From contig JACQKD010000009.1 of the NCBI GenBank assembly GCA_016204695.1, positions 11,710 to 75,709 of the forward strand: a DNA stretch of 64,000 nt, read 5' to 3'. Below the pieces are notes generated by a model, which was given only the letters and a program-made list of their open reading frames with translations, was not told the origin of the DNA and made no database searches. The translations under genes were made by a program, and so were the position numbers. The DNA is from Candidatus Kaiserbacteria bacterium (GTDB taxonomy: Bacteria; Patescibacteriota; Minisyncoccia; Phycocordibacterales; UBA918). Shown here piece after piece: positions 36,096 to 53,579 of the stretch (positions are counted from its first letter, which is position 1; each line of letters opens with the position of its first letter).

Positions 36096-36136
36096 AAAAC
36101 CGCACGAGCGGGCTTTTGCCCGCTCGTGCGGTTTTC
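36096..36136 (+). promoter_or_regulatory. leader hairpin (15-bp perfect stem, UUUU loop, followed by UUUUC) between the promoter and the rplC start; possible attenuator
   Basis: aaaaccgcacgagcgggc-tttt-gcccgctcgtgcggttttc. The track GTG start at 36126 lies inside the stem, so GTG 36162 is favoured as the rplC start. Confidence 0.4.
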
Positions 36137-36161
36137 TGTCCGCTACATCTTCCGCTATATC

Positions 36162-36785: not shown

Positions 36786-36792
36786 TCATATT

Positions 36793-37539
36793 TTGCATAT
36801 GCAGGCAATAACATACAACAAAGAAGGTAAGGAAACGGGGAAGGTGGAACTTCCGGAGAGCGTCTTCGGCCTGCCATGGAATGCGGATCTTGTTCATGGC
36901 GTAGTGCTTGCCATGCAGGGTAATGCCCGCGCGGGCACGGCGCATACCAAGAACCGCGGCGAAGTGCGGGGTAGCGGCCGCAAGCCGTGGCGCCAGAAGG
37001 GTACCGGCCGAGCCCGCGCGGGTTCCAAGCGCTCCCCGATCTGGCGCGGCGGCGGCATCTCGCACGGTCCGCGCACCGAAAAAGACTACTCGCGTGCGCT
37101 CAATCGCAACGTCCGCGCCAAAGCGCTCGGTGTCACCCTCTCCCAGAAGCTTCGCGACGACGAGATCATCTTCCTTGATGAGTTTTCGTTCGGTTCGCCG
37201 AAAGCGAAAGACGCGAAGGCGGTACTTGTTGCGGTAAGCGGCATTGGCGGCAAGGGAGCGCTTGCCACAAAGCGCAGAAATGCGGCACTGCTTGTTCTGC
37301 CTCTGCGTGACGAGCATGTTGAAAAAAGCTTCCGCAACTTCGGCAACATGGCGGTCAGTCAGGCAAAGGACATCAATCCTGTCGACCTTCTTTCATACAA
37401 GTATGTCGTGCTTGCGGGCGCCGACGCCATCATCAAACAGCTCTCCGACCGCGTCGCGACCAAGGCAACAAAGGCGACCAAGAACAAGACAGAGGACGAG
37501 ACCAAGAAGCGTTCGGTACCAGTTGTAGCAAAAAAGTAA
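36793..37539 (+). CDS. rplD: 50S ribosomal protein L4
   Basis: [16 protein letters not shown] motif. Confidence 0.9.
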
Positions 37540-37548
37540 TCACACACC

Positions 37549-37908
37549 ATGGCACTCTTCGGACGAAAAAAAGCATCGACACCGGCAAGCGCGCAATCCG
37601 CGAAGTCTGCGGTCGCGCGCGTCGACCGCGATCTCTCGCAGGTCCTCTTGCGACCGCGCGTCACGGAGAAGTCGGCGCGTCTGAATGAGCAAAACGCGTA
37701 CACGTTCCTCGTCCGCAAGGGCGCGACCAAGTACGACGTACGCGATGCGGTACGACAGATCTTCAACGTGACCCCACGCAAGATCACGATCGTCAACCGC
37801 ACTCCCCGCACGACGCATCTGCGTTCTCGCAGTCGCACCGTGACGGAGCCGGGCATGCGGAAGGCACACATCTTTCTTAAAAAGGGCGATCGCATCGATC
37901 TCGCATAG
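37549..37908 (+). CDS. rplW: 50S ribosomal protein L23
   Basis: LLRPRVTEKSARL motif. Confidence 0.9.
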   Translation: MALFGRKKASTPASAQSAKSAVARVDRDLSQVLLRPRVTEKSARLNEQNAYTFLVRKGATKYDVRDAVRQIFNVTPRKITIVNRTPRTTHLRSRSRTVTEPGMRKAHIFLKKGDRIDLA

Positions 37909-37924
37909 CTTTTGACTATCAGGT

Positions 37925-38785
37925 ATGAAAACATACAAACCAACATCAGCAGGACGCCGCGGCATGTCGGTGCTTTCCTATAAAGAGCACCTTTCAAGTA
38001 CGAAAAACGCCCCGCACAAGCCGCTGACGCGCGGCGGCAAATCGACCGGCGGCCGCAATCGCTTCGGACGCACGACCGCGTTTTATCGCGGCGGCGGTGT
38101 GAAGCGTACCTATCGTCTCGTTGACTTTATCTATAACAAAAAGGACGTTCCCGCCCGTGTTGAAAAGATCGAGTACGATCCGTATCACTCGGCCTTCATC
38201 GCGCTCGTCTGTTATCGAGACGGCGAACGCCGCTACATTCTCGCGCCCAAGGACATGAAAGTCGGCGACGAGTTCACCGTGTCCGCGACCGCCCGCACAA
38301 AGACCGGCAATCGCACCGTACTCGGCAACATTTCCGTCGGCACCTTTGTGCACAACATCGAGCTGAAGCCCGGAGCAGGCGCCCGCATGGCGCGCTCGGC
38401 CGGAAGCTATGCCGAAGTGGTCGCGCACGATGCCGGCTATACGCTCTTGAAGATGCCCTCGACCGAAGTGCGCCGCGTGCCATCCGGCGCATGGGCATCC
38501 ATCGGCGTTGTTTCAAACGATGAAAACCGCCTCGTCTCGTTGGGCAAGGCAGGAAGAGCGCGCTATCGGGGCTTGCGCCCGAAGAACCGCGGTACCGCTC
38601 GGAACGCCGTTGATCACCCGCATGGCGGCGGCGAGGGCCGCAGTCCTCGCGGTCACCGCCGTGAGCGCACCGTACACGGCCGCCCGACCGGCAAAGGACA
38701 GAAATCCCGCCGCCCCAAGAAGTATTCAAACAAACACATCATCTCCCGCCGCAAGCCCGGGAAGATCATGGGCGGAAAAAGATAA
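37925..38785 (+). CDS. rplB: 50S ribosomal protein L2
   Basis: Conserved L2 core with GRNxxG and HPHGGGEG. Confidence 0.95.
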   Translation: MKTYKPTSAGRRGMSVLSYKEHLSSTKNAPHKPLTRGGKSTGGRNRFGRTTAFYRGGGVKRTYRLVDFIYNKKDVPARVEKIEYDPYHSAFIALVCYRDGERRYILAPKDMKVGDEFTVSATARTKTGNRTVLGNISVGTFVHNIELKPGAGARMARSAGSYAEVVAHDAGYTLLKMPSTEVRRVPSGAWASIGVVSNDENRLVSLGKAGRARYRGLRPKNRGTARNAVDHPHGGGEGRSPRGHRRERTVHGRPTGKGQKSRRPKKYSNKHIISRRKPGKIMGGKR

Positions 38786-38822
38786 GAAAAATGCTCCCCG
38801 ACAAAGGGGAGCTTTTCTTATC
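38781..38822. terminator. 42-nt perfect palindrome overlapping the rplB stop (bidirectional intrinsic terminator), left edge of the island
   Basis: gataagaaaaatgctcccc-gacaaa-ggggagcttttcttatc. Confidence 0.5.
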
Positions 38823-38843
38823 TTTTTCCGAGCCGGAGCGATG

Positions 38844-38871
38844 TTTTTCTGCCCGTGCCGAGGCAGAAAAA
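38844..38871. terminator. second palindromic hairpin tttttctgcc-N8-ggcagaaaaa
   Basis: Read directly; 23 nt after the first hairpin. Confidence 0.4.
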
Positions 38872-39024
38872 CCGCGAGGCGTGGTCAAGGATGCTTAGTA
38901 GAATTTACGCGAAGCGGAAATTATACTTAGCAATCCGTGACGAAAGAGATAGTATCTCTTCCTATAAAAATACTACAGGCCACCAGGATACGCCCCGGTG
39001 GCCCGCGTTCGATTGGTCGACGCT

Positions 39025-39480
39025 TCAACTTCTTTCCCCTCGTCGCTCCTCTATTCTTGTCAGTACAGCGGCGGACCAGATCGCGGGAACGAATACCATG
39101 AGCGTCGGCATTCCCGCTGTGGTCAGATAAAGGTTTCCTGGCAGACTGACTTCACCTCTGAAATGCGCCCGTAGAGAGGTGCGAGTCCACGTCGAGATCT
39201 GATAGAGATTGTGGTATGGAGGCGAGGGGTCTCGACATGCGATTGTCAGCCGCTGGAAATCCTGACGTTGGTTACCGGTCAAAAACGGAACGTTACGCAG
39301 GAGTAGGTCTCGCATTCGCAGTCCCGTTACCTCGGCCATCTCGACGAGATCCACCCACTCCCGCCGTTCCAATCTGCCGATGAGTTCTTGGTCACTGCCG
39401 TGTGGAACAAACGGCAGAGTGTACCGCGCCGGCCGCACCTTTCTGGGCACTCGATCGATATCCATATCCATCATCTCCAT
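39025..39480 (-). CDS. hypothetical protein (151 aa), weak; possibly a remnant at the island edge
   Basis: ORF only. Confidence 0.2.
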   Translation of the reverse strand: MEMMDMDIDRVPRKVRPARYTLPFVPHGSDQELIGRLERREWVDLVEMAEVTGLRMRDLLLRNVPFLTGNQRQDFQRLTIACRDPSPPYHNLYQISTWTRTSLRAHFRGEVSLPGNLYLTTAGMPTLMVFVPAIWSAAVLTRIEERRGERS

Positions 39481-39641
39481 CCTCCTGCCGCATCTTGCGG
39501 CTCACTAGTCCATAGCCATAGGCGAACAACAAACTGGCGCGATACTGTCACAAAACCGTCCCGAACGCAAGATATCCGACAGTTATGCACTTGCACCTCT
39601 TGTGCTCGGCGGGGCAGATCATACCATGCACGTAACAGCCC

Positions 39642-42600
39642 ATGCACACTCTTCATTCTGCGCTCGGTGCGGGAATGACGCGGCATATCCGCGCAATGTC
39701 TGTCTTATTGTGTCTCCTTTTTCTCCTCGCCGCTCCGCGCATCGCCTCGGCGTATCTCGTTTTCAGCCAGAACCCGCCAAACGAAACATACAACGGCGCC
39801 ATGCTCGATAGCCCGTACCATTTTATAAGTTTCGGATGCACGCTCTCGCTCGACTGCGGAGTGGCGGGCGAGACAGTCTACCGCGTCGGCGTCTGGATGC
39901 AAAAAGTCGGCAGTCCGAAAGACGTGCGGCTCGATGTTGTCGGAGATTGGCAGGATATAAGCGGGACAAGCGCGGTCGCATCGACTCCGGTCTCGGCGGA
40001 CACAATTCCAAATGACGCCTATACGCTTGTGTGGTTTGATTTTCCCGAAGGAGTGGTGATCGGAGAGCGGGGCGCAAACAACCAGTTCTTCCAGTTTCAA
40101 TTCGCGGATGCGCCGGGGATGTATGACGCGGCCAACCATTACCGCGTCCTCTTTCATGAGACGAGCGACTTTTCCGGACCCGCGCAGTGGTGCAAAAAGT
40201 ACAGCGGCTGTTTCTCCTCGCAATTTTATTGGCAGATGGACGCCGGTCCGGTGCCGCAGGCACCGGACCAATTCTACGCGACCACTACCGCATCAGGCAC
40301 CGAGCAGTATGCGGACCACTTCGACGCAGACCCTTCGTGGAACACCGACCAACCCGAGCATTTTTCTTGGGACTCCGCGCGGCATGAACTGCGCGCGCAT
40401 ATGGAAAATACTCCACCCGCGTATCAACCCAATCGCTATTTTATAAAAGAGTTGGACATAGATCCGACCCAATCTTTCAGTATTTCGGCCGATCTCATGC
40501 TTGAAGATGCCCGCGGCGGCAATGGCGCCATACTCTTCGGACTCTTTGCGGACGACTTTACCCATGAAAATCTGACGCCGACGAACGGCCCGCGCATATA
40601 CAGCAAAAGCACGCTCAATCTCAAGCTCATGTCGCTTGGCGGGGGCAATCGCTTTTTTGAACTCAACGCTATCGGTCAGGATAGCGTACAGCAGGGCGGC
40701 GGAGGAAGCGGCCCCTCTTTTCGCCGCTACCGATGGTATACCTTTTATCTCCGCTATGATGCGGAAACCAAACACGTGTACGGGACCGTCATCGACACCA
40801 AGACCGGCCTGCCCTACATCTCGCTCGACGCCGACATGCCCGCAGGATTCTCGCCCGACATGCGCTATCTCGGTGTCAGCATGCATCCCGACGGCGAATT
40901 TCATTCAACCATGGCCGGAAGCGAACAGCGGCTCGCGGGCGCATCCGACTTCCGCATAGACAACGTCCGCGTTTTCGGCACCGCCTCCACCACTCCAACA
41001 CCCGCATGCTGTTCCAATATATTTTTCATCCCGGGCATTCAGGCGAGCCGATTGTATCTTGATGAAAATGGCAATGAGAATCGGCTCTGGGAGCCAAATT
41101 GGAGGACAGATATCAAAAAGCTCTTTTTTGATAAGAACGGGGAGAGCGTGACGCAAGGTATCTATACCAAAGATACGATTGATGCCGTATTCGGTAGGTC
41201 TGATATCTATGGCGAGTTTACTACTTCACTCGACGGTCTTGTGACGGATGGCACGATTGCCGACTGGCAAGCGTTTCCCTACGATTGGCGCAAGAGCGCG
41301 GAAGATGTTGTCGAAAGCGGCACTTCGATCAAGGTTGGCGATGATGTGCAGGTGGTGTATATGGCCGACGAGCTTCTCAATCTTGCCACCACCTCAAAGA
41401 GTGGAAAGGTAACCATTCTCGGCCACAGCAACGGCGGCATTGTTGGCAAACTGCTCATTGACGAACTGGTGCGCCGCGGTCATGCCGATCTCGTAGACAC
41501 ATTCATCATGGTCGCGACGCCCCAGCTCGGCACGCCGAAAGCGCTCGCGAGTCTTCTCCACGGCGACGAGCAGTCGATTCCGTGGGAGCACTTCGGCGTT
41601 GTTATGGACAAGAGCATGGCCCGCGATTTTGCGGAAACGATGCCCGGAGGGTACGCTCTCATTCCTTCGGCGAGATACATCTCAAGCGTGTCCGAACCGG
41701 TGATTGAATTTGATCCCGATGTTGCCGAGATTTACGACTTCCCATCGCTCTACGGTGATTCAATCGATACGCAGAGCGAACTACAGGAATTTCTCACGGG
41801 TGACAATGGCGGTCGCGCCAAACCATCCGAGGAAGATACCGACTCGCCAAATGTACTCGACAAGACACTCGTCGGAGAGGCATACACTCTGCACCGTCAT
41901 CTCGACTCATGGACTGCGCCGGAAGGCATCGAAGTGATTCAGATCGTCGGTTGGGGGCTCGATACCATCCGCGGCATCCGCTATGACGACTGCGACATAC
42001 TGCTGTGTCCTGATAATTTGGGTAACCTCGATAGGGAACTTCTTTTAGATACTGAAGGTGACGGAACTGTTGTAGCCGAAAGCGCAAGTGCCGCAACCGG
42101 AATGGAAACCTATTATCTAAAGTTACATGCTTATAACGATGGTACGGGAGAAAACAGAGACCACGCCGATTTTTTGGGAGCAAAACCAGTACAAGAACTC
42201 ATCAAGAACTTCGTACAAAATGGTACCAGTACATTACCGACATATGTCAGCCCCGAAAAACCGTCGGATACAAGTGACGAGCGCTTGCGATTCAGAATCC
42301 ATTCCCCCGTCTCTCTCGATCTCTATGACACGAAAGGCCGCCACACTGGCATTCTTCCGCCCGCACCAGATTCCGACCTGATGCGCATCGAAGCCGAAAT
42401 ACCCAACAGCTACTATCGCGAATTCGGAGAGGTAAAGTATGCGGGAGCGGGCTCTGGAGAGCCGGTTGGTGTTGTGCTCATCGGCCAAGACACTGGCACA
42501 TTCACGCTCGAGATTGAAGAGATTCGAGGAGATGCAGTGCAGGAGACAAGCGTATTTACGGACATTCCTGTGGTGGAAAACGCTCGCGCATCCGTTGAGA

Positions 42601-42998
42601 ATGTTGGCGGTACGGCGCCCCCTTCGCTCTCGCTCGACATGGATAATGATGGAGTCAATGACGCGTCGATCGCTCCGGGAGAGGGTCTGACCTCCCAAGA
42701 ATTGATCGGCATTCTCCGCGGTCTGATATGGACGCTTGATCTGCCGGTGGAGAAACAGAAGAAACTCGACAAGATCTTCGATACAATAGACAAGACGCTT
42801 ATCAAAGACCAGAAGTGCGTTGCACACGCAAAAGCCAAGTGCGAACACAATACCAAGCACAAGACCGATCAGGCATTTGCCAAGCTCTCGCAGTCAATAC
42901 AGAAATTATCCCGAGATAAAAAGGATGCGGTATCTTCGGAAGATGTGACCGACATACTGGCACTTATAAATCTCGTTAAAACTAATTTGAAAATATAA
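39642..42998 (+). CDS. large secreted multidomain protein with an alpha/beta-hydrolase (lipase/LCAT/PGAP1-like) domain
   Basis: N-terminal signal-like MSVLLCLLFLLAAPRIASA. Nucleophile elbow VTILGHSNGGIVGKLL with upstream FFIPGIQASRLY. A jelly-roll-like N-terminal region precedes it. The C-terminus has helical KK-rich repeats. Confidence 0.6.
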   Translation: MHTLHSALGAGMTRHIRAMSVLLCLLFLLAAPRIASAYLVFSQNPPNETYNGAMLDSPYHFISFGCTLSLDCGVAGETVYRVGVWMQKVGSPKDVRLDVVGDWQDISGTSAVASTPVSADTIPNDAYTLVWFDFPEGVVIGERGANNQFFQFQFADAPGMYDAANHYRVLFHETSDFSGPAQWCKKYSGCFSSQFYWQMDAGPVPQAPDQFYATTTASGTEQYADHFDADPSWNTDQPEHFSWDSARHELRAHMENTPPAYQPNRYFIKELDIDPTQSFSISADLMLEDARGGNGAILFGLFADDFTHENLTPTNGPRIYSKSTLNLKLMSLGGGNRFFELNAIGQDSVQQGGGGSGPSFRRYRWYTFYLRYDAETKHVYGTVIDTKTGLPYISLDADMPAGFSPDMRYLGVSMHPDGEFHSTMAGSEQRLAGASDFRIDNVRVFGTASTTPTPACCSNIFFIPGIQASRLYLDENGNENRLWEPNWRTDIKKLFFDKNGESVTQGIYTKDTIDAVFGRSDIYGEFTTSLDGLVTDGTIADWQAFPYDWRKSAEDVVESGTSIKVGDDVQVVYMADELLNLATTSKSGKVTILGHSNGGIVGKLLIDELVRRGHADLVDTFIMVATPQLGTPKALASLLHGDEQSIPWEHFGVVMDKSMARDFAETMPGGYALIPSARYISSVSEPVIEFDPDVAEIYDFPSLYGDSIDTQSELQEFLTGDNGGRAKPSEEDTDSPNVLDKTLVGEAYTLHRHLDSWTAPEGIEVIQIVGWGLDTIRGIRYDDCDILLCPDNLGNLDRELLLDTEGDGTVVAESASAATGMETYYLKLHAYNDGTGENRDHADFLGAKPVQELIKNFVQNGTSTLPTYVSPEKPSDTSDERLRFRIHSPVSLDLYDTKGRHTGILPPAPDSDLMRIEAEIPNSYYREFGEVKYAGAGSGEPVGVVLIGQDTGTFTLEIEEIRGDAVQETSVFTDIPVVENARASVENVGGTAPPSLSLDMDNDGVNDASIAPGEGLTSQELIGILRGLIWTLDLPVEKQKKLDKIFDTIDKTLIKDQKCVAHAKAKCEHNTKHKTDQAFAKLSQSIQKLSRDKKDAVSSEDVTDILALINLVKTNLKI

Positions 42999-43003
42999 AA
43001 GTT

Positions 43004-43405
43004 ATGGAAAGCAAAAAAAGAATCAATCAACTAATCATCGTAGCGGCGATTCTTTCTGTACTATTTTTCTTCCTATCCAGCCCGATAAAGAATGGTCTAT
43101 GCGCTGATACCGACATTAGTTGTGCTCGTTTGGGGGATAGTATTGGGATACCTATTTTCCTTTTTTCAATAAGTATTTTTATCCTGTGTGTATTGCTACG
43201 GTGGCTGTCTGCCGGCTTCCATGCATGGCTTCGGTTCGCAAAATACTATATTCTTGTTGCCGCACTTTTGATCACCGCTTCGCCGAGCGTGGCGACCACC
43301 ATCTTCGGCTTCGACAAAGAATTCATGTCCTGGGCTACGGCCGGCTTATTCCTCCTCGTCAGTCTGATACTCGTTGTTTATAAACAATTTAGGAAGAAAG
43401 AGTGA
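43004..43405 (+). CDS. small polytopic membrane protein (3-4 helices)
   Basis: Hydrophobic and AT-richer than its surroundings. Follows the hydrolase gene directly. Confidence 0.45.
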   Translation: MESKKRINQLIIVAAILSVLFFFLSSPIKNGLCADTDISCARLGDSIGIPIFLFSISIFILCVLLRWLSAGFHAWLRFAKYYILVAALLITASPSVATTIFGFDKEFMSWATAGLFLLVSLILVVYKQFRKKE

Positions 43406-43937
43406 TACTCGACATCCTATGCGAAATTTCTACCAATATCGTAAGTGGTTGGCGGTTCTCGCTCTTTCTTGCGGTATTCTAGCCGGATTAAGTACTCTTA
43501 TGTTTATTCCGTACGAAATGGGTCTGTGTCGGTACCACGATAGTCATTGTCGAGAGCGATATGAAAACAAAGGAGGAACTATTTTAGCGGTAACTTTTCC
43601 GGTATTCATACTGGGCTCATTTATATTCGTCCATACACGAAACGGTAAACGACCGTGGCGCATCTCACTTGTCATGTTGGGGTCCGTCGGCGCTCTTTCG
43701 GTTTTAGAAAATATCACTCATTCAGAAGGCGGTTTTGGTTTGTCGTTCCCATCTGAATTCGTTGTTCTTGCGATCATCTTGGGATTCGTTTACGGAGCAT
43801 ATCTCGTAAGTATGACGCTAAAAGAGTTGTTAGAGAGGAATCTCCTTTTTAGAAGAATAGGTGTCAAGACTCTGGCAGGTATACTCCTCACGCTGACTTT
43901 GGGAGTTTTCATGACTCTGGAATTCTTTTGGCTATAG
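43374..43937 (+). CDS. polytopic membrane protein (about 5 helices)
   Basis: Hydrophobic. Its start overlaps the previous gene. AT-richer than the flanking DNA. Confidence 0.45.
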   Translation: MFINNLGRKSDTRHPMRNFYQYRKWLAVLALSCGILAGLSTLMFIPYEMGLCRYHDSHCRERYENKGGTILAVTFPVFILGSFIFVHTRNGKRPWRISLVMLGSVGALSVLENITHSEGGFGLSFPSEFVVLAIILGFVYGAYLVSMTLKELLERNLLFRRIGVKTLAGILLTLTLGVFMTLEFFWL

Positions 43938-44165
43938 GGTCTCTATATCGTAGTATGATCTCGCTCGGCAAAAAGATCACGTCGAGGTTCTCTCCCGGTT
44001 TATTTCCAGTTCCTGGTGATGATACTCATCATATACAAACAAATTTGGGGCAGAGCGCAATAAAAGTGGGACTGTAGTACACTCATCGCATGTCCAAAGA
44101 AGCTGAAGATCGCCAGTGTCTCAAGAGGCCGCTTTTCTAGTCCTGCTGCAGATTTATTTTGGTAG

Positions 44166-45404
44166 TTGGAATTCCCTTCTTTCCGCCAGATGTCCAAGTT
44201 AGAACCCTTTATTAACATGCCACCAGAACAAAATAATCGTTCGTACGCGCATCTACCCGATGAACTGTTGGGAAAAATTCTCGAGAATGTCCCGCATACC
44301 GTCAACAAAATGAACAGCCTGTTCGATATCCAAGACGAACCTATCGCAAAAGGGATGGAGAAACTGCGGACCGGCGATAAAATCAAGAAGCTCTCCGCTA
44401 CGGAGGCCTCCAATTCGGTCATTGCTGTTGACGGAGGCAATATCCCCGAGAAAATGGCTGGCGCGGACGTGCTCCTAGCCGTTGCCGTCGGCGTTGAGGG
44501 TCTATCGGAGGATAAGGGTACGGAGTGGGGCAGCGAGAAGAATCAATACTACCAGTGGCAAACTGTCCTTCCTCACGGCGAAGCCAACGCACGTCTCATA
44601 CAAGGGGTGATGTTTTTGATGGAGTTATCGGTACTTGCGAACGACGACCATGAGATCCGTATTATGGACGGCACGCACTTCACGCCGATATTGAAGATAA
44701 ACAGCATGTTGTCGGCAAAGGAGGAGGGCGCGGGTGCTGAATACACGAACGCACTCCGGGACTTCTTGCGAGAAACCTACTCGAAAATCATCCCTGACAT
44801 CCCTCAAATCATTACGGCTGCACAAAACAACGAACACATCATTGCTCTTGCGAAGTACAGTTCGTCCACCGATGTCATCGACGCCTTCTTGAACGATTGC
44901 GATATCAAGCTCGACGACAAGACCTTCTTTTCTCTTGGCTTACAGGAGGATGAATACTTCGTGCCACATTCTGCCGGACAGAGTCCGCAGGAACGGGAGC
45001 GTATTTGGAACGAGCTGCACATCATCTGCAATCTCGATATACCCGAACGCGAGGAACTCAATTATGCGCTCGCCGCTGCAATTGAACCCATCAGGACGAA
45101 AGGCGGAAAAAAGTCAGAGCTCTACTACACCTACTATCGGCCATTCATGGACGGACCAGCATATCGCATCGAGCTCAAGAAAAGTGTCGCCGAAGACCAA
45201 TCCAAATTGGAGCGCTATCTCTTCAGCTTGAAAAACCAGATTGTTTTCCCCGAAATCCGCGAGCCATATCCTCAATATCTTGTCGACCTCATGGCAAAAA
45301 GTATCTCGACAGGCATGTTTGCAATCGTTGACGCCATTCGTCTCTCGCCCGATTTAAAAATTGACCAAGGTAAGTTCAATCTATTATTCTCATATCGCAC
45401 ATAA
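44166..45404 (+). CDS. NurA-like nuclease-domain protein
   Basis: Two DG(S/G/T) motifs characteristic of NurA (VIAVDGGNI and IRIMDGTHFTPIL). Translationally coupled to a HerA-like ATPase. The start is uncertain (alternative ATGs at about 44190 and 44217). Confidence 0.5.
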   Translation: MEFPSFRQMSKLEPFINMPPEQNNRSYAHLPDELLGKILENVPHTVNKMNSLFDIQDEPIAKGMEKLRTGDKIKKLSATEASNSVIAVDGGNIPEKMAGADVLLAVAVGVEGLSEDKGTEWGSEKNQYYQWQTVLPHGEANARLIQGVMFLMELSVLANDDHEIRIMDGTHFTPILKINSMLSAKEEGAGAEYTNALRDFLRETYSKIIPDIPQIITAAQNNEHIIALAKYSSSTDVIDAFLNDCDIKLDDKTFFSLGLQEDEYFVPHSAGQSPQERERIWNELHIICNLDIPEREELNYALAAAIEPIRTKGGKKSELYYTYYRPFMDGPAYRIELKKSVAEDQSKLERYLFSLKNQIVFPEIREPYPQYLVDLMAKSISTGMFAIVDAIRLSPDLKIDQGKFNLLFSYRT

Positions 45405-45406
45405 CT

Positions 45407-47221
45407 ATGGCAACTGAAAAAGAAAAGACAGCGAACTTCTCAGAGGAAATCCTTGAAGCAATAAAGAAGCAAGGCGATTCTCTCATTGGCATTACTGGCT
45501 CGCCAAGTACGACGCTCGACATCGTCATCGACATTGTCGAAAAGAGTAAGGCGCAGAGGGCTTTGGGCCAGATGGTTTATGTCGTAGTCAACGAAGACGG
45601 CCAAGACATTCTCGTTATAGGGCAAATCATCGGCATAGAGACGCAAAACCGATGGCATGAAGACCCTTCGTTCAAGGGTGTAATAAAGCGTCACGGGCGC
45701 CTCCCGCACTTGAGCGGTACGGCCGACAATCGCGTCGCTACAATCAGCGTGCAGGCCTGCTACAGCTTGGGGACCGAAACCCCGGAGGGTCATATCTTGG
45801 GAACTTCTCCTTCGACCGGCGAACGCGTACAGAAAATGAACAACGAGGTCATGTCCGCGTTGATGAAAAAGCACGACGGAATCACCTACATGGGTAAGGT
45901 GTACGGGACCGATGTCGATTTGCCGTTTTGGTTCAAGCACTTCGACAGGACCGACGAGAAGAACAAGGAAATTGGCGCGGGCGACGCGTATCACATAGGT
46001 GTCTTCGGCAGAACAGGCTCCGGTAAAACCGTTTCCGCGGCGTACATGCTCCTCGGTTATGCCAAAAACAAGAACAACATCAGCATCATGGTGCTTGACC
46101 CGCAACGACAATTCTTCGCGGATAAAGACCTGCTCCCACCAGACCAAAAGCTAGAGGACCACATTACCAAGACGGGAATGAAATATGAGAAATACGAAGT
46201 GCTGAAAGATATCTGTCTTCCGAGCGATAATTACGAGTTGTTTGGCGACTTGCTTGCGAACAACGGTTTCCTCGAGCTTGCCTTGCGTCCCTTGTACACT
46301 CCGGACAAAGTCGAAGCCGCGCGCGATGCTGTCATCGAGTATCTTCGCGGTCGAGCAAATGTACCGAGTTTCAATCTCAACTCGATTACCGACAAAACAG
46401 CTCTTCTTCAAGAGTTGCTGAATCGGTTTACAACGCCCACGGGTCCGCAGGAGACCAGCGCCGGCTACAGTTCCTATGTCATTTCAATATTTGGAACCAC
46501 GCAGACGCGCACACGCCTCCAAAATAGATTGGAGCATATTCGAGACCATCTCGCCACAGAGACGAACGTAGTCCGTAAATGGGGAAATGCTCTCGAGCTC
46601 TTTACCAAGACGCGAGCCGACAGTACGCAAAAGATGTCCGTGGAGGAGCTTGTGAAGAAAGTCGTACTGGAAAACGGGAATTTCATCGTGCTCGACATCA
46701 GCGGCACTCAAGTCGGCGAAATACAGAACGAAAACCTCCAAGCGGTTTTCATCAAGACGATTGAAGCGAAAATAGTTGAGCTTGGGGCGCAGCTCTATGC
46801 CGACGGTAAAAAAGCCAACTGTCTCATCGTTATGGACGAAGCGCACAGATTCATTTCCACTACGTCGCAAGACCCTCGCATCAAAGAACTCACGCAGGAA
46901 ATCATTGGCTCGGTCCGCACAACTCGCAAGTACGGCATCGGCTATATGTTCATTACGCAGACCATCGAATCATTGGACGACGAAATTCTGCGACAGATGC
47001 GAATTTTTGGTTTCGGATATGGGCTCACTTCCGGTTCGGAACTTCGGAAGGTCAGCGAGTTCGTAAACAATCCTTCAGCGATTCAGCTGTACAAGTCGTT
47101 CATCGACCCGAGTAGCAACCACAAATTCCCGTTCATGTTCTTTGGCCCGGTATCGCCCCTATCATTCACCGGCTCACCGCTTTTTATTGAAATGTACGGA
47201 GACGTAAAGGACTTCAGATAG
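45407..47221 (+). CDS. HerA/FtsK-like (DUF87) hexameric ATPase
   Basis: Walker A HIGVFGRTGSGKTVSAAYML, Walker B NCLIVMDEAHRF and FITQT sensor-like motif. 604 aa. Confidence 0.7.
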   Translation: MATEKEKTANFSEEILEAIKKQGDSLIGITGSPSTTLDIVIDIVEKSKAQRALGQMVYVVVNEDGQDILVIGQIIGIETQNRWHEDPSFKGVIKRHGRLPHLSGTADNRVATISVQACYSLGTETPEGHILGTSPSTGERVQKMNNEVMSALMKKHDGITYMGKVYGTDVDLPFWFKHFDRTDEKNKEIGAGDAYHIGVFGRTGSGKTVSAAYMLLGYAKNKNNISIMVLDPQRQFFADKDLLPPDQKLEDHITKTGMKYEKYEVLKDICLPSDNYELFGDLLANNGFLELALRPLYTPDKVEAARDAVIEYLRGRANVPSFNLNSITDKTALLQELLNRFTTPTGPQETSAGYSSYVISIFGTTQTRTRLQNRLEHIRDHLATETNVVRKWGNALELFTKTRADSTQKMSVEELVKKVVLENGNFIVLDISGTQVGEIQNENLQAVFIKTIEAKIVELGAQLYADGKKANCLIVMDEAHRFISTTSQDPRIKELTQEIIGSVRTTRKYGIGYMFITQTIESLDDEILRQMRIFGFGYGLTSGSELRKVSEFVNNPSAIQLYKSFIDPSSNHKFPFMFFGPVSPLSFTGSPLFIEMYGDVKDFR

Positions 47222-47225
47222 AGAG

Positions 47226-48404
47226 TTACTTATTTCGCACTAGGGCTTGATAGGTATTCTTGAAACCCTCTAATTCCTCTTCTGCATCGCGTATATAGCC
47301 AGCTGCTGTAAAGTCCTTATAGCTCACATCTCGCTGGCTTCTCGGGATAGCCCACCTTGTTTTCCAGCTGTCAGTAAGGTCCGTAATAGATCGCTTGATC
47401 CACTTCGGCTTTTTGTTGTGTCGTATGACCTCCTTGAGATTGTCTACCAAAGAGAAAAGATACACGCCACGCTTGATTGTATGCCGCGTTCCTTTTTCGA
47501 AGCCGATCATCTTCATTGCTTGATCGATGAGCTTGATCTTGCGAGACGGCCCCGATCCATAACCGCGAGCAGTATCGATATTTTTTGATTCCAAGTAGCG
47601 GAGCAAGTTTTCGTACATCAGGTTCGAGATATGGAAAGAGCCGATGCCGTTGCTGTAGCCGATAAAGTCGGCGACCATTTTTTCTTTGTACTTGAGACGA
47701 GCATAGATGCTACTCTTGCCGTAACCACCGGTCGTCGTGACGAAGAGTAATCGCGCAGGAATTTTACGCTTCTGCATTACGGTGCGGACCGTTCTATATT
47801 TTTTCTCGAAAGCACGACGTATCGTGTCGGAAGTGAGGAGACTAGCAACGAGTTTGCCGCCGAGGAGTTGATTGTATGGTGGAAGAGCACCAAGACGTTG
47901 CGCGCTTAGTGACTGATTGACCCAGTAATCCCGGTCCTTTGCAGAAATACCGAGGTGGCCATCTCGGACCGCCCAACTTAGGATTGGACTTTGAAGACCA
48001 ATAAGACCAATCGGGGCTTTATGGTAGCTGTCCCATACGAGAAAGCGCATCTGCCGACCGTAAGCGCGCTCATTCGGGAGGCTCCACCATACGAGACTCC
48101 ACCAGCGAAACATGATTTCCCATTTGCTACCGGCCTTGACCTCAATAAGTCGCGGCTTGATCTTGGCCACATTGATATCCTTACCGTTCGGTAAGTGTGA
48201 GAGGATGAACTGTTTGTGTTTCGTGACAAATTTTTCTTGAGCAAGAATGCGCTCGGCTTTCGCTATGATGTGCGCCTTACGTTTGGAGTCTCGGGTATTT
48301 TCTTTGAGCTGGATCACTCCGCTCCTTATACGGTAGCCTTGCTTATGCAGACTCCTGATGATTTCTCTTTTTAGTTCTTTAGATCTGGTAAGTGTCGATG
48401 GCAT
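47226..48404 (-). CDS. 392-aa protein of unknown function, convergent with the HerA-like gene (stops 4 bp apart)
   Basis: Clean ORF with a protein-like composition. No motif I can assign with confidence. Confidence 0.5.
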   Translation of the reverse strand: MPSTLTRSKELKREIIRSLHKQGYRIRSGVIQLKENTRDSKRKAHIIAKAERILAQEKFVTKHKQFILSHLPNGKDINVAKIKPRLIEVKAGSKWEIMFRWWSLVWWSLPNERAYGRQMRFLVWDSYHKAPIGLIGLQSPILSWAVRDGHLGISAKDRDYWVNQSLSAQRLGALPPYNQLLGGKLVASLLTSDTIRRAFEKKYRTVRTVMQKRKIPARLLFVTTTGGYGKSSIYARLKYKEKMVADFIGYSNGIGSFHISNLMYENLLRYLESKNIDTARGYGSGPSRKIKLIDQAMKMIGFEKGTRHTIKRGVYLFSLVDNLKEVIRHNKKPKWIKRSITDLTDSWKTRWAIPRSQRDVSYKDFTAAGYIRDAEEELEGFKNTYQALVRNK

Positions 48405-48550
48405 AGCTTTTTAGATTAGGTATCGTTGCATCTCCATTGTAGCTTTTTAGCAAGAGAACAGGTGATGAAGCACGTGGATACGCCTCCATACGCTAGTGTC
48501 AAGAGGTCATGTAAATAATTACTCAATTTTTGCCATATTGAGCACTACTG

Positions 48551-48579
48551 TTGATAACTCGCCTTGAGGGGTGTAAGAT
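48551..48579 (+). promoter_or_regulatory. sigma70-like promoter TTGATA-17-TAAGAT for the antitoxin gene
   Basis: Lies in the divergent intergenic region. The ATG at 48596 is 16 nt downstream of the -10. Confidence 0.35.
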
Positions 48580-48595
48580 ACGCTACTATTCAAGT

Positions 48596-49318
48596 ATGGC
48601 TTCTATGCTTTCAAAACTCAATATTAAAGCACTGCGGGAATCACACGGCATGTCGCAGGCGTATCTCGCCGAACGGCTTGGTATGTCTCGCCCGACCTTC
48701 ATAAAGGTGGAGAAAGGAGAACGGATACTGACTCGTCCTGAAGAGGAACGTGTCAGGGAGCTGTTCGGGATGGTTGATGAATTCACGAAAGCGACGGACA
48801 TACGCATCTCCGTACCGCAGAAGAAACTGGAGAAATTCAAACAGGTGCTCCTGTATGTGCTTGAGAAAACAGCCGGAAACCCGAAGATCGGCATGACCGC
48901 ACTCTACAAGCTCCTCTATTTCATTGATTTTGACTACTATGAAAAGTATGACCAGCAGTTGATGGGACTCACCTATATTAAAAATCACTATGGTCCAACG
49001 CCTCGCGAATTCGTGAAAGTGGTGGAGGACATGAAGCAGGCGGGCGATCTGGAAGAGGTGAGGAGTTCGTATTTTGCGTACGAGCAGAGAAAATTTCTTC
49101 CTCGCAAATCAGCAAACCTTGCGTCGTTAAGCGGCCAGGAGAAGGAGATGATTGATAGCGTCCTCGCACGATATGGTGATAAAAGCGCGACGGAACTCAC
49201 GCGGCTCTCACACGAGGATACGCCGTATGTGGTCGCGGAAGACGGGAAAAATATTGAGTACGAGCATGTGTTCTATCGTACCGACGGGTTCTCCGTGCGC
49301 GAGTATGATCCGCTGTAG
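48596..49318 (+). CDS. HTH-XRE + Panacea (DUF4065/SocA-like) domain protein, putative type II antitoxin
   Basis: N-terminal HTH LRESHGMSQAYLAERLGMSRPTFIKVEKGER. C-terminal ALYKLLYFIDFDYYEKYDQQLMGLTYIKNHYGPTPRE matches the Panacea/DUF4065 signature. Confidence 0.55.
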   Translation: MASMLSKLNIKALRESHGMSQAYLAERLGMSRPTFIKVEKGERILTRPEEERVRELFGMVDEFTKATDIRISVPQKKLEKFKQVLLYVLEKTAGNPKIGMTALYKLLYFIDFDYYEKYDQQLMGLTYIKNHYGPTPREFVKVVEDMKQAGDLEEVRSSYFAYEQRKFLPRKSANLASLSGQEKEMIDSVLARYGDKSATELTRLSHEDTPYVVAEDGKNIEYEHVFYRTDGFSVREYDPL

Positions 49319-49330
49319 GCGGTTGCACGT

Positions 49331-49669
49331 ATGAAATATGATGAGTTACACGAATTCTCGCGCGAATTGAAACGGCTTCGCAAAAAATACTTGACATTGA
49401 GCGATGACCTAGATGAACTGAAGCACACTTTGGCGAAGCTTACGATACAAGGCGGCGGGAAACACTGGACTTGTCTGCACCGAGAAGAGCGGGTGAGTAT
49501 CTATAAAATACGACTTGCGTGCCGATCTCTGCGGGCGACAACCATGCGAGTAATCTATGCACGTCATACGGATCCAGTCAGGATCGTTTTTATAGAACTT
49601 TATTACAAAGGCGAGAAAGAAAACGAAGATCGGGAACGTATCAAACAGTATCTTCTTGATACACAATGA
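49331..49669 (+). CDS. RelE/ParE(HigB)-superfamily toxin-like protein
   Basis: 112 aa. YKIRLACRSLRATTMRVIYARHTDPVRIVFIELYYKGEKEN resembles the RelE/ParE beta-core. Paired with the antitoxin-like gene 12 bp upstream. Confidence 0.4.
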   Translation: MKYDELHEFSRELKRLRKKYLTLSDDLDELKHTLAKLTIQGGGKHWTCLHREERVSIYKIRLACRSLRATTMRVIYARHTDPVRIVFIELYYKGEKENEDRERIKQYLLDTQ

Positions 49670-49877
49670 TAATGTGGTACTGCTCGGACCTGCCATAGAG
49701 GACAAGGATCTAGAGCACGAGTTCGTGCATGTGGAGCAGTTCGAGCGAGCGCCGTTCATATCTATGTTTTTGATGTGGATCGACAAGGCGAAAAACGGTA
49801 ATAGGTACAGTACGTATGAGGACGAAGCATATCGCCGGGCCGGCAATGTCTGGAAAGGCGAGGAGAAACGGAAGTGA
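49656..49877 (+). CDS. 73-aa ORF carrying an HExxH motif (HEFVHVEQ); possible remnant of a metallopeptidase
   Basis: Overlaps the toxin 3' end in another frame. No signal beyond the motif. Confidence 0.15.
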   Translation: MIHNDNVVLLGPAIEDKDLEHEFVHVEQFERAPFISMFLMWIDKAKNGNRYSTYEDEAYRRAGNVWKGEEKRK

Positions 49878-49892
49878 GAGGGTATAAAGGTA

Positions 49893-49928
49893 AAAGCCGG
49901 TGCGGACGTATGTCCGCACCGGCTTTTC
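49893..49928. terminator. palindromic hairpin aaaagccggtgcggac-gtat-gtccgcaccggctttt (bidirectional terminator)
   Basis: Read directly. Lies between convergent ORFs. Confidence 0.5.
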
Positions 49929-49943
49929 GCAAGCGTGCATGTT

Positions 49944-50210
49944 TCATTTGTCCTCCCACGGGGAGTTTTCCCGTATCCACTCTTCGACGTGTTGTGCGAG
50001 GGTGATAGCGACAAATGTCCAGAGAAGCGCAAGATAGGTTCCCATAGCCGCGTTCCCGAGTATGAGCCAGACTGACTTCAGCCATCTTGCACTTACGAAT
50101 ATCCACCCCACCTGGAAGAGTATGAAAACCGCAATGCTCGCCCATGCGAGCAAATGGACGAATCCGACCAAATGACCAATCCGCGGGACCTTCCGTCTTC
50201 GATCAGCCAT
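49944..50210 (-). CDS. small two-helix membrane protein (88 aa)
   Basis: Hydrophobic LVGFVHLLAWASIAVFILFQVGWIFV and LALLWTFVAITLA. Confidence 0.3.
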   Translation of the reverse strand: MADRRRKVPRIGHLVGFVHLLAWASIAVFILFQVGWIFVSARWLKSVWLILGNAAMGTYLALLWTFVAITLAQHVEEWIRENSPWEDK

Positions 50211-50377
50211 TACGACCCCCCTTGTTGCTCGGGTTATATCGAGTATGAACTACGGAACATGACTTGCGTGATAGTTTCATACTATGGTGTAGCTGGCAAG
50301 AAAATACCGCGCAAGTTAACTCGCATTTGAGACCCATACCATATGAGAATTCAAGGGTGGTGGACGCGAACAGGCGT

Positions 50378-50406
50378 TTGACAGCCCCTATGCTTTCGCG
50401 TACTAT
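50378..50406 (+). promoter_or_regulatory. sigma70-like promoter TTGACA-17-TACTAT about 120 nt upstream of rpsS (right edge of the island)
   Basis: Exact -35 hexamer, 17-nt spacer and a good -10. It would restart transcription of rpsS through secY after the insertion. Confidence 0.5.
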
Positions 50407-50526
50407 GCCTGCACAAAGCTCGAACGGGCTTTTTTGTTTGCTGGGCAGTGTTATATATGTAGGGTGCATATGTGACGCGGCCGACCGATCAAGCGCGGTC
50501 GCCAAGCGGGTGGCATACGTATCTTT

Positions 50527-50874
50527 ATGTCCCGGTCACTATATAAAGGACCATACGTCGACGAAAAATTGCTCAAGAAAGTGTTGAGCAAGAAGTCCCG
50601 TGAGGCGGGGACTATTAAGACGTGGGCGCGCCGGAGCCAGATCTCTCCGGAAATGGTGGGATATACCTTCGGAGTGCACAACGGCAAGGATCATATCGAC
50701 GTATTCGTGAGCGAGGAGATGGTGGGGCACCGGCTGGGGGAGTTCTCACCGACCACCAAATTTGTCCGCCACGGCGGCCAGATGCAGAAGGGTCTTGAGG
50801 CAAAAAAGAAGGAGGGCGAGATTGCGGCGGCGAAGGCCGCAAAGGCCGTGGCCACTCCCGCCAAGAAGAAGTAA
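50527..50874 (+). CDS. rpsS: 30S ribosomal protein S19 (with a Lys/Ala-rich C-terminal tail)
   Basis: [19 protein letters not shown]...[23 protein letters not shown]. Confidence 0.9.
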
Positions 50875-50886
50875 TCATCTCCGCAT

Positions 50887-51222
50887 ATGAAAGCCGTCCT
50901 TAAAAACTATCATCAGTCTCCCCGCAAGGTCCGCTTGCTCGCAGATCTCGTGCGCGGGAAGGACGTCCGGAAGGCGCTTGATCTTCTCTCTTTTGCGAAC
51001 AAGCGCGCGGCCGGGCCGTTTGCTGCGCTTCTGCGCTCCGCACTTGCGAATGCGAAGGCCGCCGGCTCGGATGCCGACGGTCTTGTGGTGAAAAAAGTGG
51101 CGGTCGACGCAGGGACGGCCTTTAAGCGTTTTATGCCGCGAGCGCGCGGATCGGCATCGACGATCAACCGCCGATCGAGCACCGTCACCTTGGAGCTCGC
51201 CGAGCAGGAGGCGAAAAAATAA
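50887..51222 (+). CDS. rplV: 50S ribosomal protein L22
   Basis: Typical L22 sequence. Correct position in the operon. Confidence 0.9.
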   Translation: MKAVLKNYHQSPRKVRLLADLVRGKDVRKALDLLSFANKRAAGPFAALLRSALANAKAAGSDADGLVVKKVAVDAGTAFKRFMPRARGSASTINRRSSTVTLELAEQEAKK

Positions 51223-51237
51223 CCGCCGTTTTATACC

Positions 51238-51963
51238 ATGACTCACATCGTCCATCCGTACATACACCGCCTCGGCGTCATCCGCGACTGGAAGTCTCGC
51301 TGGTTTGCGTCCGATCCGAAGAAGTACCGGGAGTATCTCCGGGTGGACCGGGGCATTCGCACCCTGCTTGAAAAGAAGCTTCGCGGCATGTACGTGGCGT
51401 CGATCGACATCGAGCGGGGCGACAAGATCGTGCGCATCGTCCTGCGGACATCGCGCCCCGGTCTCATCATCGGCCGTTCGGGAGAAGGTGCGGTGAAATT
51501 GAAAAAGGAGATCGATATGCTTCTGCGGACGCTCTCGCTCTCGGAGATCCCGGAGGTGAAGCTCGATATCGAGGAGATCCGCACGCCGGAATCGAACGCG
51601 ATGATCGTCGCGCAGATGATCGTCGAAGGACTTGAAAAGCATATGCCGTTCCGTCGCGTGATGAAGCAGACGGTCGAGAAGGTGATCGCCAACCGCGACG
51701 TCGAGGGCGTGCGGGTGATGGTCTCGGGCCGGCTCGGCGGGGCGGACATGAGCCGCACCGAGGAGCTCAAGCGCGGCCGCATCCCGCTCCAGACCCTGCG
51801 GGCCGACATCGACTTCGCGCGGGCGCGGGCGGTCGACAAGTTTGGCACGATGGGCGTAAAGGTCTGGATCTACCGCGGCGACATCTTCGCCGACCGCGCC
51901 AAGCGGAGTGAGGAACGCCCGGAGCAGCCGCGCGGCCGCTTCGAACACGCACGGACCCGTTAA
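51238..51963 (+). CDS. rpsC: 30S ribosomal protein S3
   Basis: KH domain and S3 C-terminal core. Confidence 0.9.
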   Translation: MTHIVHPYIHRLGVIRDWKSRWFASDPKKYREYLRVDRGIRTLLEKKLRGMYVASIDIERGDKIVRIVLRTSRPGLIIGRSGEGAVKLKKEIDMLLRTLSLSEIPEVKLDIEEIRTPESNAMIVAQMIVEGLEKHMPFRRVMKQTVEKVIANRDVEGVRVMVSGRLGGADMSRTEELKRGRIPLQTLRADIDFARARAVDKFGTMGVKVWIYRGDIFADRAKRSEERPEQPRGRFEHARTR

Positions 51964-51972
51964 CATACCGAT

Positions 51973-52392: not shown

Positions 52393-52412
52393 TGCGACAG
52401 CATAGCGGCAGT

Positions 52413-52604: not shown

Positions 52605-52615
52605 CAGAATGTCAT

Positions 52616-53250: not shown

Positions 53251-53258
53251 ATAGTTGT

Positions 53259-53564: not shown

Positions 53565-53579
53565 CCTATCTATTTCCAT

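Follow-up and report, generated by a model that had tools for sequence, protein, structure and literature searches.

How does a bacterium accommodate about 11.7 kb of non-ribosomal genes in the middle of its S10 ribosomal protein gene cluster? The question is raised by a 64,000-nt stretch of DNA (hereafter the window; contig JACQKD010000009.1, positions 11,710 to 75,709, assembly GCA_016204695.1) from a member of the Paceibacteria/"Kaiserbacteria" lineage within the Patescibacteria, or Candidate Phyla Radiation (CPR). Here, rplC-rplD-rplW-rplB (36126–38785, + strand) and the following block rpsS-rplV-rpsC-rplP-rpmC-rpsQ-rplN and onward, which begins at 50527, are separated by 11,741 bp (38786–50526) with no ribosomal gene inside. 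An earlier note, prepared from the sequence without database searches, regarded this cargo as an acquired island interrupting the S10 operon, a rare arrangement because read-through was held to be essential. The span and gene order that it described are accurate, and Pfam, PADLOC, and fold matches support its cargo list of a secreted hydrolase, membrane proteins, a NurA/HerA-like pair, and a toxin-antitoxin-like pair. In full, the cargo comprises a secreted LCAT-like hydrolase, two membrane proteins, NurA, HerA, DruA, a helix-turn-helix (HTH)+Panacea antitoxin, and its partner with a RelE/HigB fold. Our analysis of related genomes leads to a different reading of the site. We consider it probable that the cargo is a mosaic occupying an old spacer, bounded by a terminator and a promoter, between separate ribosomal operons; this spacer gains and loses genes, and nothing was inserted into an operon.

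The assembly was checked against three independent Logan per-run assemblies from different Sequence Read Archive runs, each of which is 100% identical to the window. The first (L161, SRR12113383; 13,351 bp) corresponds to positions 37943–51293 and spans both junctions, extending from inside rplB across the entire cargo into rplV. The other two cover 43134–55721 (L162, SRR12113384) and 42278–48446 (L163, SRR12113430). The rplB–rpsS cargo is thus not a misassembly, which settles the earlier note's concern over a misjoin at either end.

To place the gap in its lineage, we retrieved 160 loci surrounding L2 relatives in species-representative genomes and in metagenomes and positioned 22 cluster genes per locus by tblastn. 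Of the 21 junctions surveyed, 18 are tight, with medians of at most 30 bp and only three instances in total above 300 bp, none of them above 1 kb. The remaining three are open. At rplB–rpsS, the median distance is 1463 bp, with 90/105 loci above 300 bp and 67 above 1 kb; at rpsJ–rplC, the median is 860 bp (55/76 above 300 bp, 33 above 1 kb); and at rplE–rpsN, it is 520 bp (43/68 above 300 bp, 21 above 1 kb). The window is open at all three, with distances of 11741, 3395, and 498 bp, respectively. Within the nearest clade, defined by rplB/L2 identity of at least 66%, the rplB–rpsS gap exceeds 300 bp in 43/44 genomes (median 2.4 kb, maximum 6.6 kb). In two loci, no rpsS was found within 10 kb. 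The window gap is the largest measured, and it is the extreme of a lineage rule rather than an exception to it. The supposed rarity of the arrangement therefore does not hold. Comparison with relatives, in most of which rplB and rpsS lie apart, supports an old lineage-specific arrangement for the gap itself but not, as discussed below, for its contents.

The sequence signals at both ends of the gap point in the same direction. The rplB gene (L2; 37925–38785, + strand), the last of the rplC-rplD-rplW-rplB unit, ends in a terminator-like hairpin at 38773–38830 that overlaps its stop codon and can be read as a hairpin on either strand. It consists of 18-nt perfect arms (38773–38790 and 38813–38830) around a 7-bp inner stem (38793–38812), followed by the T-run TTTTTCC. 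A second hairpin, TTTTTCTGCC...GGCAGAAAAA, lies at approximately 38843–38873. Both had been noted before as perfect palindromes; they are present, although the coordinates given were a few bases off and the first contains a 2-nt bulge. Jointly, the two fold at −65.7 kcal/mol (z = −8.9), and 0/200 shuffled sequences folded as well. Twin hairpins of like design occur in relatives such as L129, L015, L116, and L028. For a broader survey, the 100 nt from the rplB stop codon were folded against shuffles in 88 relatives with a gap of at least 300 bp, with mid-gap segments serving as the control. The median z was −5.4 after rplB, below −2 in 93% and below −3 in 84% of relatives, as compared with a median of 0 and 14% below −2 for the controls. 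The design in relatives resembles that of the window, with a long perfect stem including the stop codon and often a second hairpin after it.

At the other end, rpsS (S19; 50527–50874, + strand), the first gene of the rpsS...rplE unit, is preceded by a TTGACA-17-TACTAT promoter at 50378–50406 on the + strand. The earlier note had called this element consensus-like, and indeed it is the top match in 16.5 kb, with 10/12 positions agreeing. We then searched up to 320 nt upstream of each gene across the loci for the strict pattern TTGAC[AT]-N16-18-TAnnnT. It was present in 71% of loci for rpsS, 54% for rpsN, and 24% for tuf, against 0–1% for the genes at tight junctions and for rplC and a background of 2.2% per equal length. 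The value of 11% for rpsH arises because its search window spills over onto the rpsN promoter. Over both strands of the whole window, the strict pattern matches five times, always on the + strand upstream of a + strand gene: twice for tuf and once each for rpsS, rpsN, and an open reading frame (ORF) at 59502. Between the promoter and rpsS lies a 5′-proximal leader hairpin with a U-run (50415–50440, + strand; AAAGCTCGAACGGGCTTT TTTGTTTG), and a hairpin and U-run at the same position are conserved in relatives with short leaders.

Relatives with little or no cargo are especially informative. When rplB and rpsS are 140–260 nt apart, the interval contains only three elements: a terminator hairpin, the promoter, and a short leader hairpin together with its U-run. 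At 57–70 nt, the promoter is kept and the leader hairpin is found in 2/4 relatives (L150 and L151); at 1–23 nt, neither promoter nor leader hairpin is present. Because the boundary signals are conserved lineage-wide, even at gaps of 140–260 nt, they would predate the cargo, and we infer that this internal terminator and promoter are the source of the site's tolerance for insertions. By the same signals, rpsS in this lineage appears to head a transcription unit of its own. Because the lineage conserves both a terminator behind rplB and a promoter ahead of rpsS, read-through across the junction is not required, contrary to what had been assumed, and no special mobilization mechanism for breaking an operon need be invoked. 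The paradox of an island within an essential operon dissolves because the lineage has re-partitioned the operon.

Comparison with the S10 and spc operons of the Escherichia coli type clarifies what has changed. The window cluster is fully collinear with them, running tuf, rpsJ, rplC, rplD, rplW, rplB, rpsS, rplV, rpsC, rplP, rpmC, rpsQ, rplN, rplX, rplE, rpsN, rpsH, rplF, rplR, rpsE, rplO, and secY. Whereas the E. coli-type arrangement breaks at rpsQ–rplN, the breaks here fall at rpsJ–rplC, rplB–rpsS, and rplE–rpsN, with terminator-like hairpins after rplB, internal promoters before rpsS and rpsN, and non-ribosomal genes filling the breaks. A single-transcript S10 operon would run contiguously from rpsJ to rpsQ without internal signals; the window instead has gaps of 3395 and 11741 bp at junctions that are open in most relatives, and its sequence contains a hairpin after rplB and a promoter before rpsS. 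The cluster also differs in having no L30 gene, as rplO directly follows rpsE (56799–56813). This fits the loss of L30 in CPR bacteria that Brown et al. reportedly described in 2015.

The contents of the gap, unlike its boundaries, turn over. No cargo gene of the window has a homologue in the gap of any of the 105 relatives that hold both flanks, and the genes of the relatives' gaps, including the clade-resident families, were not found in the window gap. Those resident families are DUF2103 (approximately 105 aa; 27 loci), DUF3298 (approximately 270 aa; 19 loci), a peptidoglycan-binding acidic secreted protein (14 loci), and a YdjM-like membrane protein (7 loci). Many other genes are singletons, including purC, purE, FtsW, RNase PH, Fpg, TruB, glycosyltransferases, and very large secreted proteins, along with MazF, PIN-PhoH, an IS200-like transposase, and a LAGLIDADG endonuclease. 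Even close pairs differ. L040 and L038 share 85% nucleotide identity in rplB, and their gaps measure 263 and 3901 bp; the difference is confined precisely to the stretch from the rplB stop codon to a conserved 120-nt promoter block. L073 and L075 are 93% identical in rplB at the nucleotide level and have only about 10% of their gaps in common; the gaps of L046/L047 and L011/L091 also differ. We considered a dedicated defense hotspot and rejected it, as PADLOC recognized only a homing endonuclease and a HIT protein among 80 representative gap proteins from relatives. The rplB–rpsS gap is a general permissive spacer, not a defense hotspot. It shares with the defense islands and hotspots of E. 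coli, Pseudomonas, and Vibrio a fixed site between conserved genes with cargo that varies by genome, and the window cargo includes defense-type genes and a toxin-antitoxin pair. It differs in being flanked by ribosomal protein genes within the S10-spc cluster, in having no integrase, and in that the cargo of relatives consists mainly of ordinary or secreted-protein genes.

Composition separates the cargo into parts. From about 42 to 50.5 kb, GC content is 0.42–0.50, compared with 0.56 ± 0.035 for genes elsewhere in the window, and this is the sole part of the 64 kb with GC below 0.51; its tetranucleotide distance is 4–5 standard deviations (SD) from the rest. These windowed GC and tetranucleotide checks substantiate the AT-richer stretch remarked on earlier and extend it. 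The left part, from about 38.9 to 42.7 kb, is host-like in both measures, the deviant right part continues from there to about 50.3 kb, and the shift in GC coincides with neither junction. The GC content at third codon positions (GC3) averages 0.64 ± 0.07 in the host; the two low-GC membrane protein genes and the toxin gene, at 0.41–0.49, fall short of this by over 2 SD. Relatives carry none of the cargo in their gaps and a compositional shift is present; had the same genes been shared without such a shift, the view of the cargo as acquired would have been untenable.

Signatures of mobility were lacking. Scans against Pfam, PADLOC, and NCBIfam matched no integrase, recombinase, or transposase family to any called island ORF of at least about 88 aa, and the two ORFs below 80 aa (73 and 76 aa) gave no mobility family in Pfam, the sole library scanned for them. 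A tRNA scan of the 64 kb found none, no Rfam 15 family matched the window at gathering score, and the search for flanking repeats or att sites returned only chance-level repeats of 14–21 nt. The absence of integrase, tRNA, and obvious direct repeats reported earlier therefore stands. A DruA profile scan of viral contigs found no relatives, which leaves a prophage origin without support.

How would such a mosaic arise? In the model that we propose, the S10-spc cluster is cut at the three fixed junctions into separate transcription units. The upstream unit would end in a strong, often double, intrinsic-terminator-like hairpin overlapping the rplB stop codon, and the downstream unit would start at its own strong sigma-70-type promoter, followed by the 5′ leader hairpin. 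DNA lying between the two is a spacer in which genes could come and go with no polar effect on the expression of ribosomal proteins; in relatives, the spacer ranges from none to more than 6 kb of unrelated genes. The window spacer may have reached 11.7 kb by piling up several independent pieces, namely a host-like 151-aa ORF with the hydrolase, two low-GC membrane proteins, the NurA/HerA/DruA trio, the Panacea/RelE-fold pair, and two small ORFs. Entry would have been piecemeal, by homologous recombination via the conserved ribosomal flanks or by illegitimate recombination, a route suggested because no recombinase, tRNA, or repeat signature is present. Recombination that added pieces one at a time, possibly anchored in the highly conserved ribosomal flanks, is the most economical inference.

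Three other explanations deserve consideration. An assembly chimera, in which ribosomal blocks and cargo from different organisms were misjoined, might be suspected given that the source is a metagenome-assembled genome and that GC changes within the region, but it is scarcely credible: the per-run assemblies agree perfectly, including the one that runs from rplB across the cargo into rplV, the relatives have the same split with other cargo, and the GC change falls at neither junction. A single mobile island of about 11.7 kb that recently entered a functional S10 operon, bringing its own terminators and creating or carrying the rpsS promoter, would account for the compositional shift over approximately 42–50.5 kb, the absence of the cargo from all relatives, the presence of a toxin-antitoxin pair, and the mobility of the trio elsewhere, where it lies beside serine recombinases in L166 and L169. 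This scenario is nonetheless unlikely. It is largely refuted already by the boundary signals, which are conserved across the lineage, including in gaps of only 140–260 nt, and are thus older than the cargo. In addition, integrase, tRNA, and flanking repeats are lacking, the left 3.9 kb is host-like in GC and tetranucleotides, the hydrolase has homologues in Paceibacteria, and the modules have other partners in other genomes.

At the opposite pole, the arrangement could be old and vertically inherited throughout, with all intervening genes long resident and nothing acquired horizontally. The gap is universal in the lineage, relatives have clade-resident gap genes (DUF2103, DUF3298, and the peptidoglycan-binding acidic protein), and several cargo genes have GC3 near the host value, all as this explanation would predict. 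We judge it improbable, however, since no cargo is common to any relative, the window lacks the clade-resident genes, the GC3 of the membrane and toxin genes deviates markedly, and the trio is 57–88% identical to copies in unrelated contexts in other hosts, including Omnitrophus and Eubacteriaceae. What survives of the acquired island proposed earlier is that the cargo is accessory and partly horizontally acquired: its right two-thirds deviates in composition, and the trio is found at other loci elsewhere. What does not survive is its unity, as the cargo is a mosaic rather than one island.

Several observations weigh against the reading of the cargo as a mosaic in an old spacer between ribosomal operons. 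The functions of terminator and promoter are predicted from sequence and conservation. The strict promoter motif is found upstream of rplC in 1% of loci, which makes the picture of four units incomplete at rpsJ–rplC. The nearest available relative has only 74–76% L2 identity, too distant to date or order the acquisitions, and a cargo-free strain of the window genome was not seen among the available relatives; the best L2 matches are metagenome-assembled genomes of Paceibacteria, Nomurabacteria, and Kaiserbacteria in that same range, and scans of genome and metagenome contigs for closer ones yielded none above 76%. An exact look-up of the window rplB product returned no record. Relatives' gaps contain mostly ordinary genes, with defense systems essentially absent. 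Finally, the GC3 values of NurA (0.60), HerA (0.63), and the Panacea antitoxin PanA (0.59) are within 1 SD of the host, and that of DruA (0.55) is within about 1.3 SD. Their shift in composition lies mainly in codon positions 1 and 2, so the GC drop derives largely from amino-acid composition and is weaker evidence for recent transfer.

Within the cargo, a trio of genes lies at 44166–48404. The NurA-like nuclease (44166–45404, + strand; the Logan call starts at 44190; Pfam NurA, 1.2e-9) is followed after 2 nt by a HerA-like P-loop ATPase/translocase (45407–47221, + strand; Pfam DUF87, 3.4e-9; PADLOC mad8, 6.6e-16, and HerA, 1.7e-11). Convergent on HerA is a 392-aa DruA-like protein of the DUF4338 family (47226–48404, − strand), listed as unknown in the earlier note and now a strong match to DruA in both Pfam (3.9e-60) and PADLOC (2.4e-89). 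PDB sequence searches returned nothing for DruA or for the 112-aa putative toxin described below, and fold searches were therefore needed. An AlphaFold2 (AF2) model of DruA, with a predicted local distance difference test (pLDDT) score of 83, gave top PDB fold matches that are all GNAT acetyltransferases, albeit weak (E approximately 0.04, probability up to 0.99). A published domain assignment agrees with a GNAT-like DruA (PMC10853773).

The DruA subfamily is tight, with the 120 best of 1591 homologues at least 53% identical and all approximately 360–410 aa long. An NCBI entry for exactly the window protein names Candidatus Kaiserbacteria bacterium. We examined ten contexts of this subfamily, the window and nine that were looked up, with sources including Buchananbacteria, Omnitrophus, Eubacteriaceae, and Brocadiales. 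The trio is intact in 9/10, in members of different phyla, with DruA beside a NurA-like protein of about 400 aa and a HerA-like protein of about 600 aa; in the tenth, the contig ends inside the gene next to DruA. Trio loci outside the window include L165 (8130–12256), L166 (8128–12297), L167 (6001–10283), L168, L169, L172, and L173. Across the contexts compared, the partners are 57–71% identical to the window copies: NurA is 63–71% identical to the NurA-like genes beside DruA/HerA in six other contexts, and HerA is 57–70% identical to its counterparts. The usual order is DruA-NurA-HerA on one strand; the window and its 88%-identical relative depart from it, with DruA placed after HerA in inverted orientation. 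The neighborhoods are otherwise unrelated, with the trio found by rpsT/ruvA, between serine recombinases, after an MmeI-like methyltransferase with or without an SNF2 helicase, or after a type I HsdR. Serine recombinases adjoin it in L166 and L169. Such a distribution suggests a horizontally spread, defense-type module.

The trio is distinct from the known systems with which it shares components. Like Druantia type I (DruA-DruB-DruC-DruD-DruE), it includes DruA; unlike that system, it has NurA and HerA as partners and lacks DruB, DruC, DruD, and the approximately 1800-aa DruE (DUF1998) helicase. PADLOC scans of nine island proteins and ten further large ORFs of the window detected no DruB–E, and none was found in any of the nine intact trio contexts. 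The canonical Druantia I DruA, which is on plasmids and followed by DruB–E, is only 30–34% identical to the window protein. Druantia type IV was likewise ruled out, as PADLOC defines it by DruE, DruF, and DruL, with no DruA. PADLOC v2, in which no NurA model matches, does not classify the trio. With Sir2-HerA, DUF4297-HerA, and the NurA-HerA end-resection complex, it shares a HerA-family ATPase encoded beside, and translationally coupled to, an effector enzyme, which here is NurA, the classical HerA partner. No Sir2 or DUF4297 was matched among the window island proteins by Pfam or PADLOC, and the contexts examined add a third, GNAT-like DruA subunit. In contrast to the end-resection complex, in which nuclease and ATPase are likewise encoded together, the trio has no Mre11/Rad50 linkage or housekeeping repair context; its neighbors are a toxin-antitoxin pair and membrane proteins in the window and restriction-modification genes or recombinases elsewhere. 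By analogy with Sir2-HerA and DUF4297-HerA, the NurA nuclease would probably be scaffolded and activated by a hexamer of HerA, and the role of the GNAT-like DruA subunit may be to sense or modify a target. The trio is thus a candidate anti-phage system.

Downstream lies a putative toxin-antitoxin pair. The antitoxin (48551–49318, + strand; the Logan call starts at 48605) combines an XRE-type HTH with a SocA-like Panacea domain (Pfam SocA_Panacea, 4.5e-19; HTH_3, 2.3e-8). Starting 12 nt downstream, a toxin-sized gene (49331–49669, + strand) encodes a 112-aa protein whose AF2 model (pLDDT 89) has as its top PDB matches RelE (1wmi; probability 1.0, TM-scores 0.62/0.76), HigB2, and YoeB. The arrangement resembles that of PanA type II toxin-antitoxin pairs, in which an HTH+Panacea antitoxin is directly upstream of a small gene, here with a predicted RelE/HigB fold. 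It departs from them in that the putative toxin matches no Pfam or NCBIfam model. Of its 84 homologues, JGI labels a few of the more distant as RelE, and a few have Patescibacteria names.

The left part of the cargo is of a different character. A terminator-like hairpin of 14 pairs (38975–39006, − strand) lies downstream of a 151-aa ORF on the − strand (39025–39480), which is host-like in composition (GC 0.56, GC3 0.60) and is also called in the Logan contig. It has no match in Pfam (to E 10), NCBIfam, or PADLOC. Next is an 1118-aa secreted LCAT-like alpha/beta hydrolase (39642–42998, + strand; Pfam LCAT, 5.6e-13) with a GHSNGG serine motif, an N-terminal signal/transmembrane segment, and a host-like GC3 of 0.60–0.64. 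Homologues occur in related Paceibacteria, downstream of rplE in L065 and L061. In L065, the homologue (9347–10969; 576 aa aligned at 33% identity) falls within the rplE–rpsN gap, meaning that a gene of this kind is found at another of the open junctions in that genome. The drop in GC begins inside the 3′ end of the hydrolase gene (42042–42998), whose last approximately 100 codons are lysine-rich with GC 0.39–0.43, so the compositional boundary differs from the gene boundary; this end could be a low-complexity tail or an old fusion point. Two membrane proteins follow on the + strand, one of 133 aa (43004–43405; GC 0.44, GC3 0.49) and one of 187 aa (43374–43937, or 172 aa if the start is at 43419), which has the lowest GC in the window (GC 0.42, GC3 0.41).

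At the right end, a 73-aa ORF (49656–49877, + strand) overlaps the end of the toxin gene and has a terminator directly downstream; it is uncertain as a gene. A perfect 16-bp hairpin at 49892–49927, between convergent units, is likely a bidirectional terminator. Beyond it, an 88-aa small membrane protein (49944–50210, − strand) is encoded divergently from the rpsS promoter. The rpsJ–rplC gap of the window, from the end of rpsJ (32413–32793) to 36125, contains a histidine kinase (32873–33796, − strand), a FIST protein (34217–35617, − strand), and a 144-aa ORF of no known family. Pfam searches to E 10 gave nothing for the 73-, 76-, and 144-aa ORFs. In the rplE–rpsN gap (54140–54638) are a 125-aa membrane ORF (54140–54517; GC 0.47) and, at 54534, a match to the strict promoter pattern.

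About 33 nearest-clade relatives have, immediately after the rpsS promoter, a conserved structured RNA of approximately 150 nt (for example, L093 4455–4602, L122 7455–7613, and L016 10717–10873). An invariant GUUCCAACCUC opens it, one hairpin has the invariant loop GGCCGUUAC, and a 3′ hairpin and U-run close it. RNAalifold predicted 17 pairs, 14 of them with compensatory changes. A covariance model found exactly one copy per locus, always just upstream of rpsS and including ten loci outside the seed alignment, and no copy in the window. A divergent 5S rRNA or other known RNA was ruled out by the absence of Rfam 15 matches in the window and eight relatives at gathering score and of anything relevant at E ≤ 10 for the L093 leader. 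This RNA is therefore a candidate for a new ribosomal protein leader or attenuator. As with the L4-responsive S10 leader and attenuators, the rpsS unit opens with a promoter followed by a hairpin and U-run, and relatives carry a structured leader; the differences are its location upstream of rpsS rather than rpsJ, the lack of an Rfam match, and the absence of the structured leader from the window.

A more distant clade (L040, L036, L038, L139, and approximately 30 others) has a conserved block of about 120 nt before rpsS. It reads TGTCAACGTTCTGAAACGG...TTGACTC-N17-TGTATCTT, then a hairpin CCCGC...GCGGG, and then CUUUUCAUUGCUU just ahead of the start codon. The stretch ahead of the −35 element could be a site for a regulator or an UP element.

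These elements can be joined in a broader proposal, which as a whole we regard as tentative and rather doubtful. Paceibacteria may have turned the three junctions into landing pads bounded by terminator and promoter, whose conserved flanks would allow cargo exchange by homologous recombination after DNA uptake; the window pad would then hold a phylum-crossing immune system of GNAT-like DruA, NurA, and HerA, and sister pads an undescribed leader RNA regulating the rpsS–rplE unit. Literature searches on the S10 operon in CPR bacteria and on rplB/rpsS in Parcubacteria returned nothing relevant, and we found no description of the three-break architecture, the leader RNA, or the trio, nor any paper with DruA together with NurA; coverage was incomplete, and prior description is possible.

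For an uncultivated phylum with reduced genomes, our survey maps in testable form how the ribosomal genes may be divided into transcription units. Three insertion-tolerant sites by ultra-conserved genes are candidate neutral sites for genetic engineering of Patescibacteria. Caution is warranted with island-prediction tools, which will flag ribosomal neighborhoods in such genomes. The trio provides a concrete candidate for a new anti-phage system and a second, simpler context for the enigmatic DruA domain.

Two further features of the window lie away from the ribosomal cluster. The dnaA gene is at 17796–19235, and the replication origin region is probably near it, within the window; the ribosomal cluster and its cargo would then lie approximately 13–40 kb from the origin, in the origin-proximal zone. 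Farther upstream, positions 6574–12449 encode a gene set resembling a type IV secretion system, neighbored by ORFs without a family match. It includes a 717-aa TrbL/VirB6-like membrane protein, just under the Pfam cut-off, and a 606-aa VirB4/TraG-type ATPase (TraG P-loop, 2.5e-24) that also matches PADLOC mad8.

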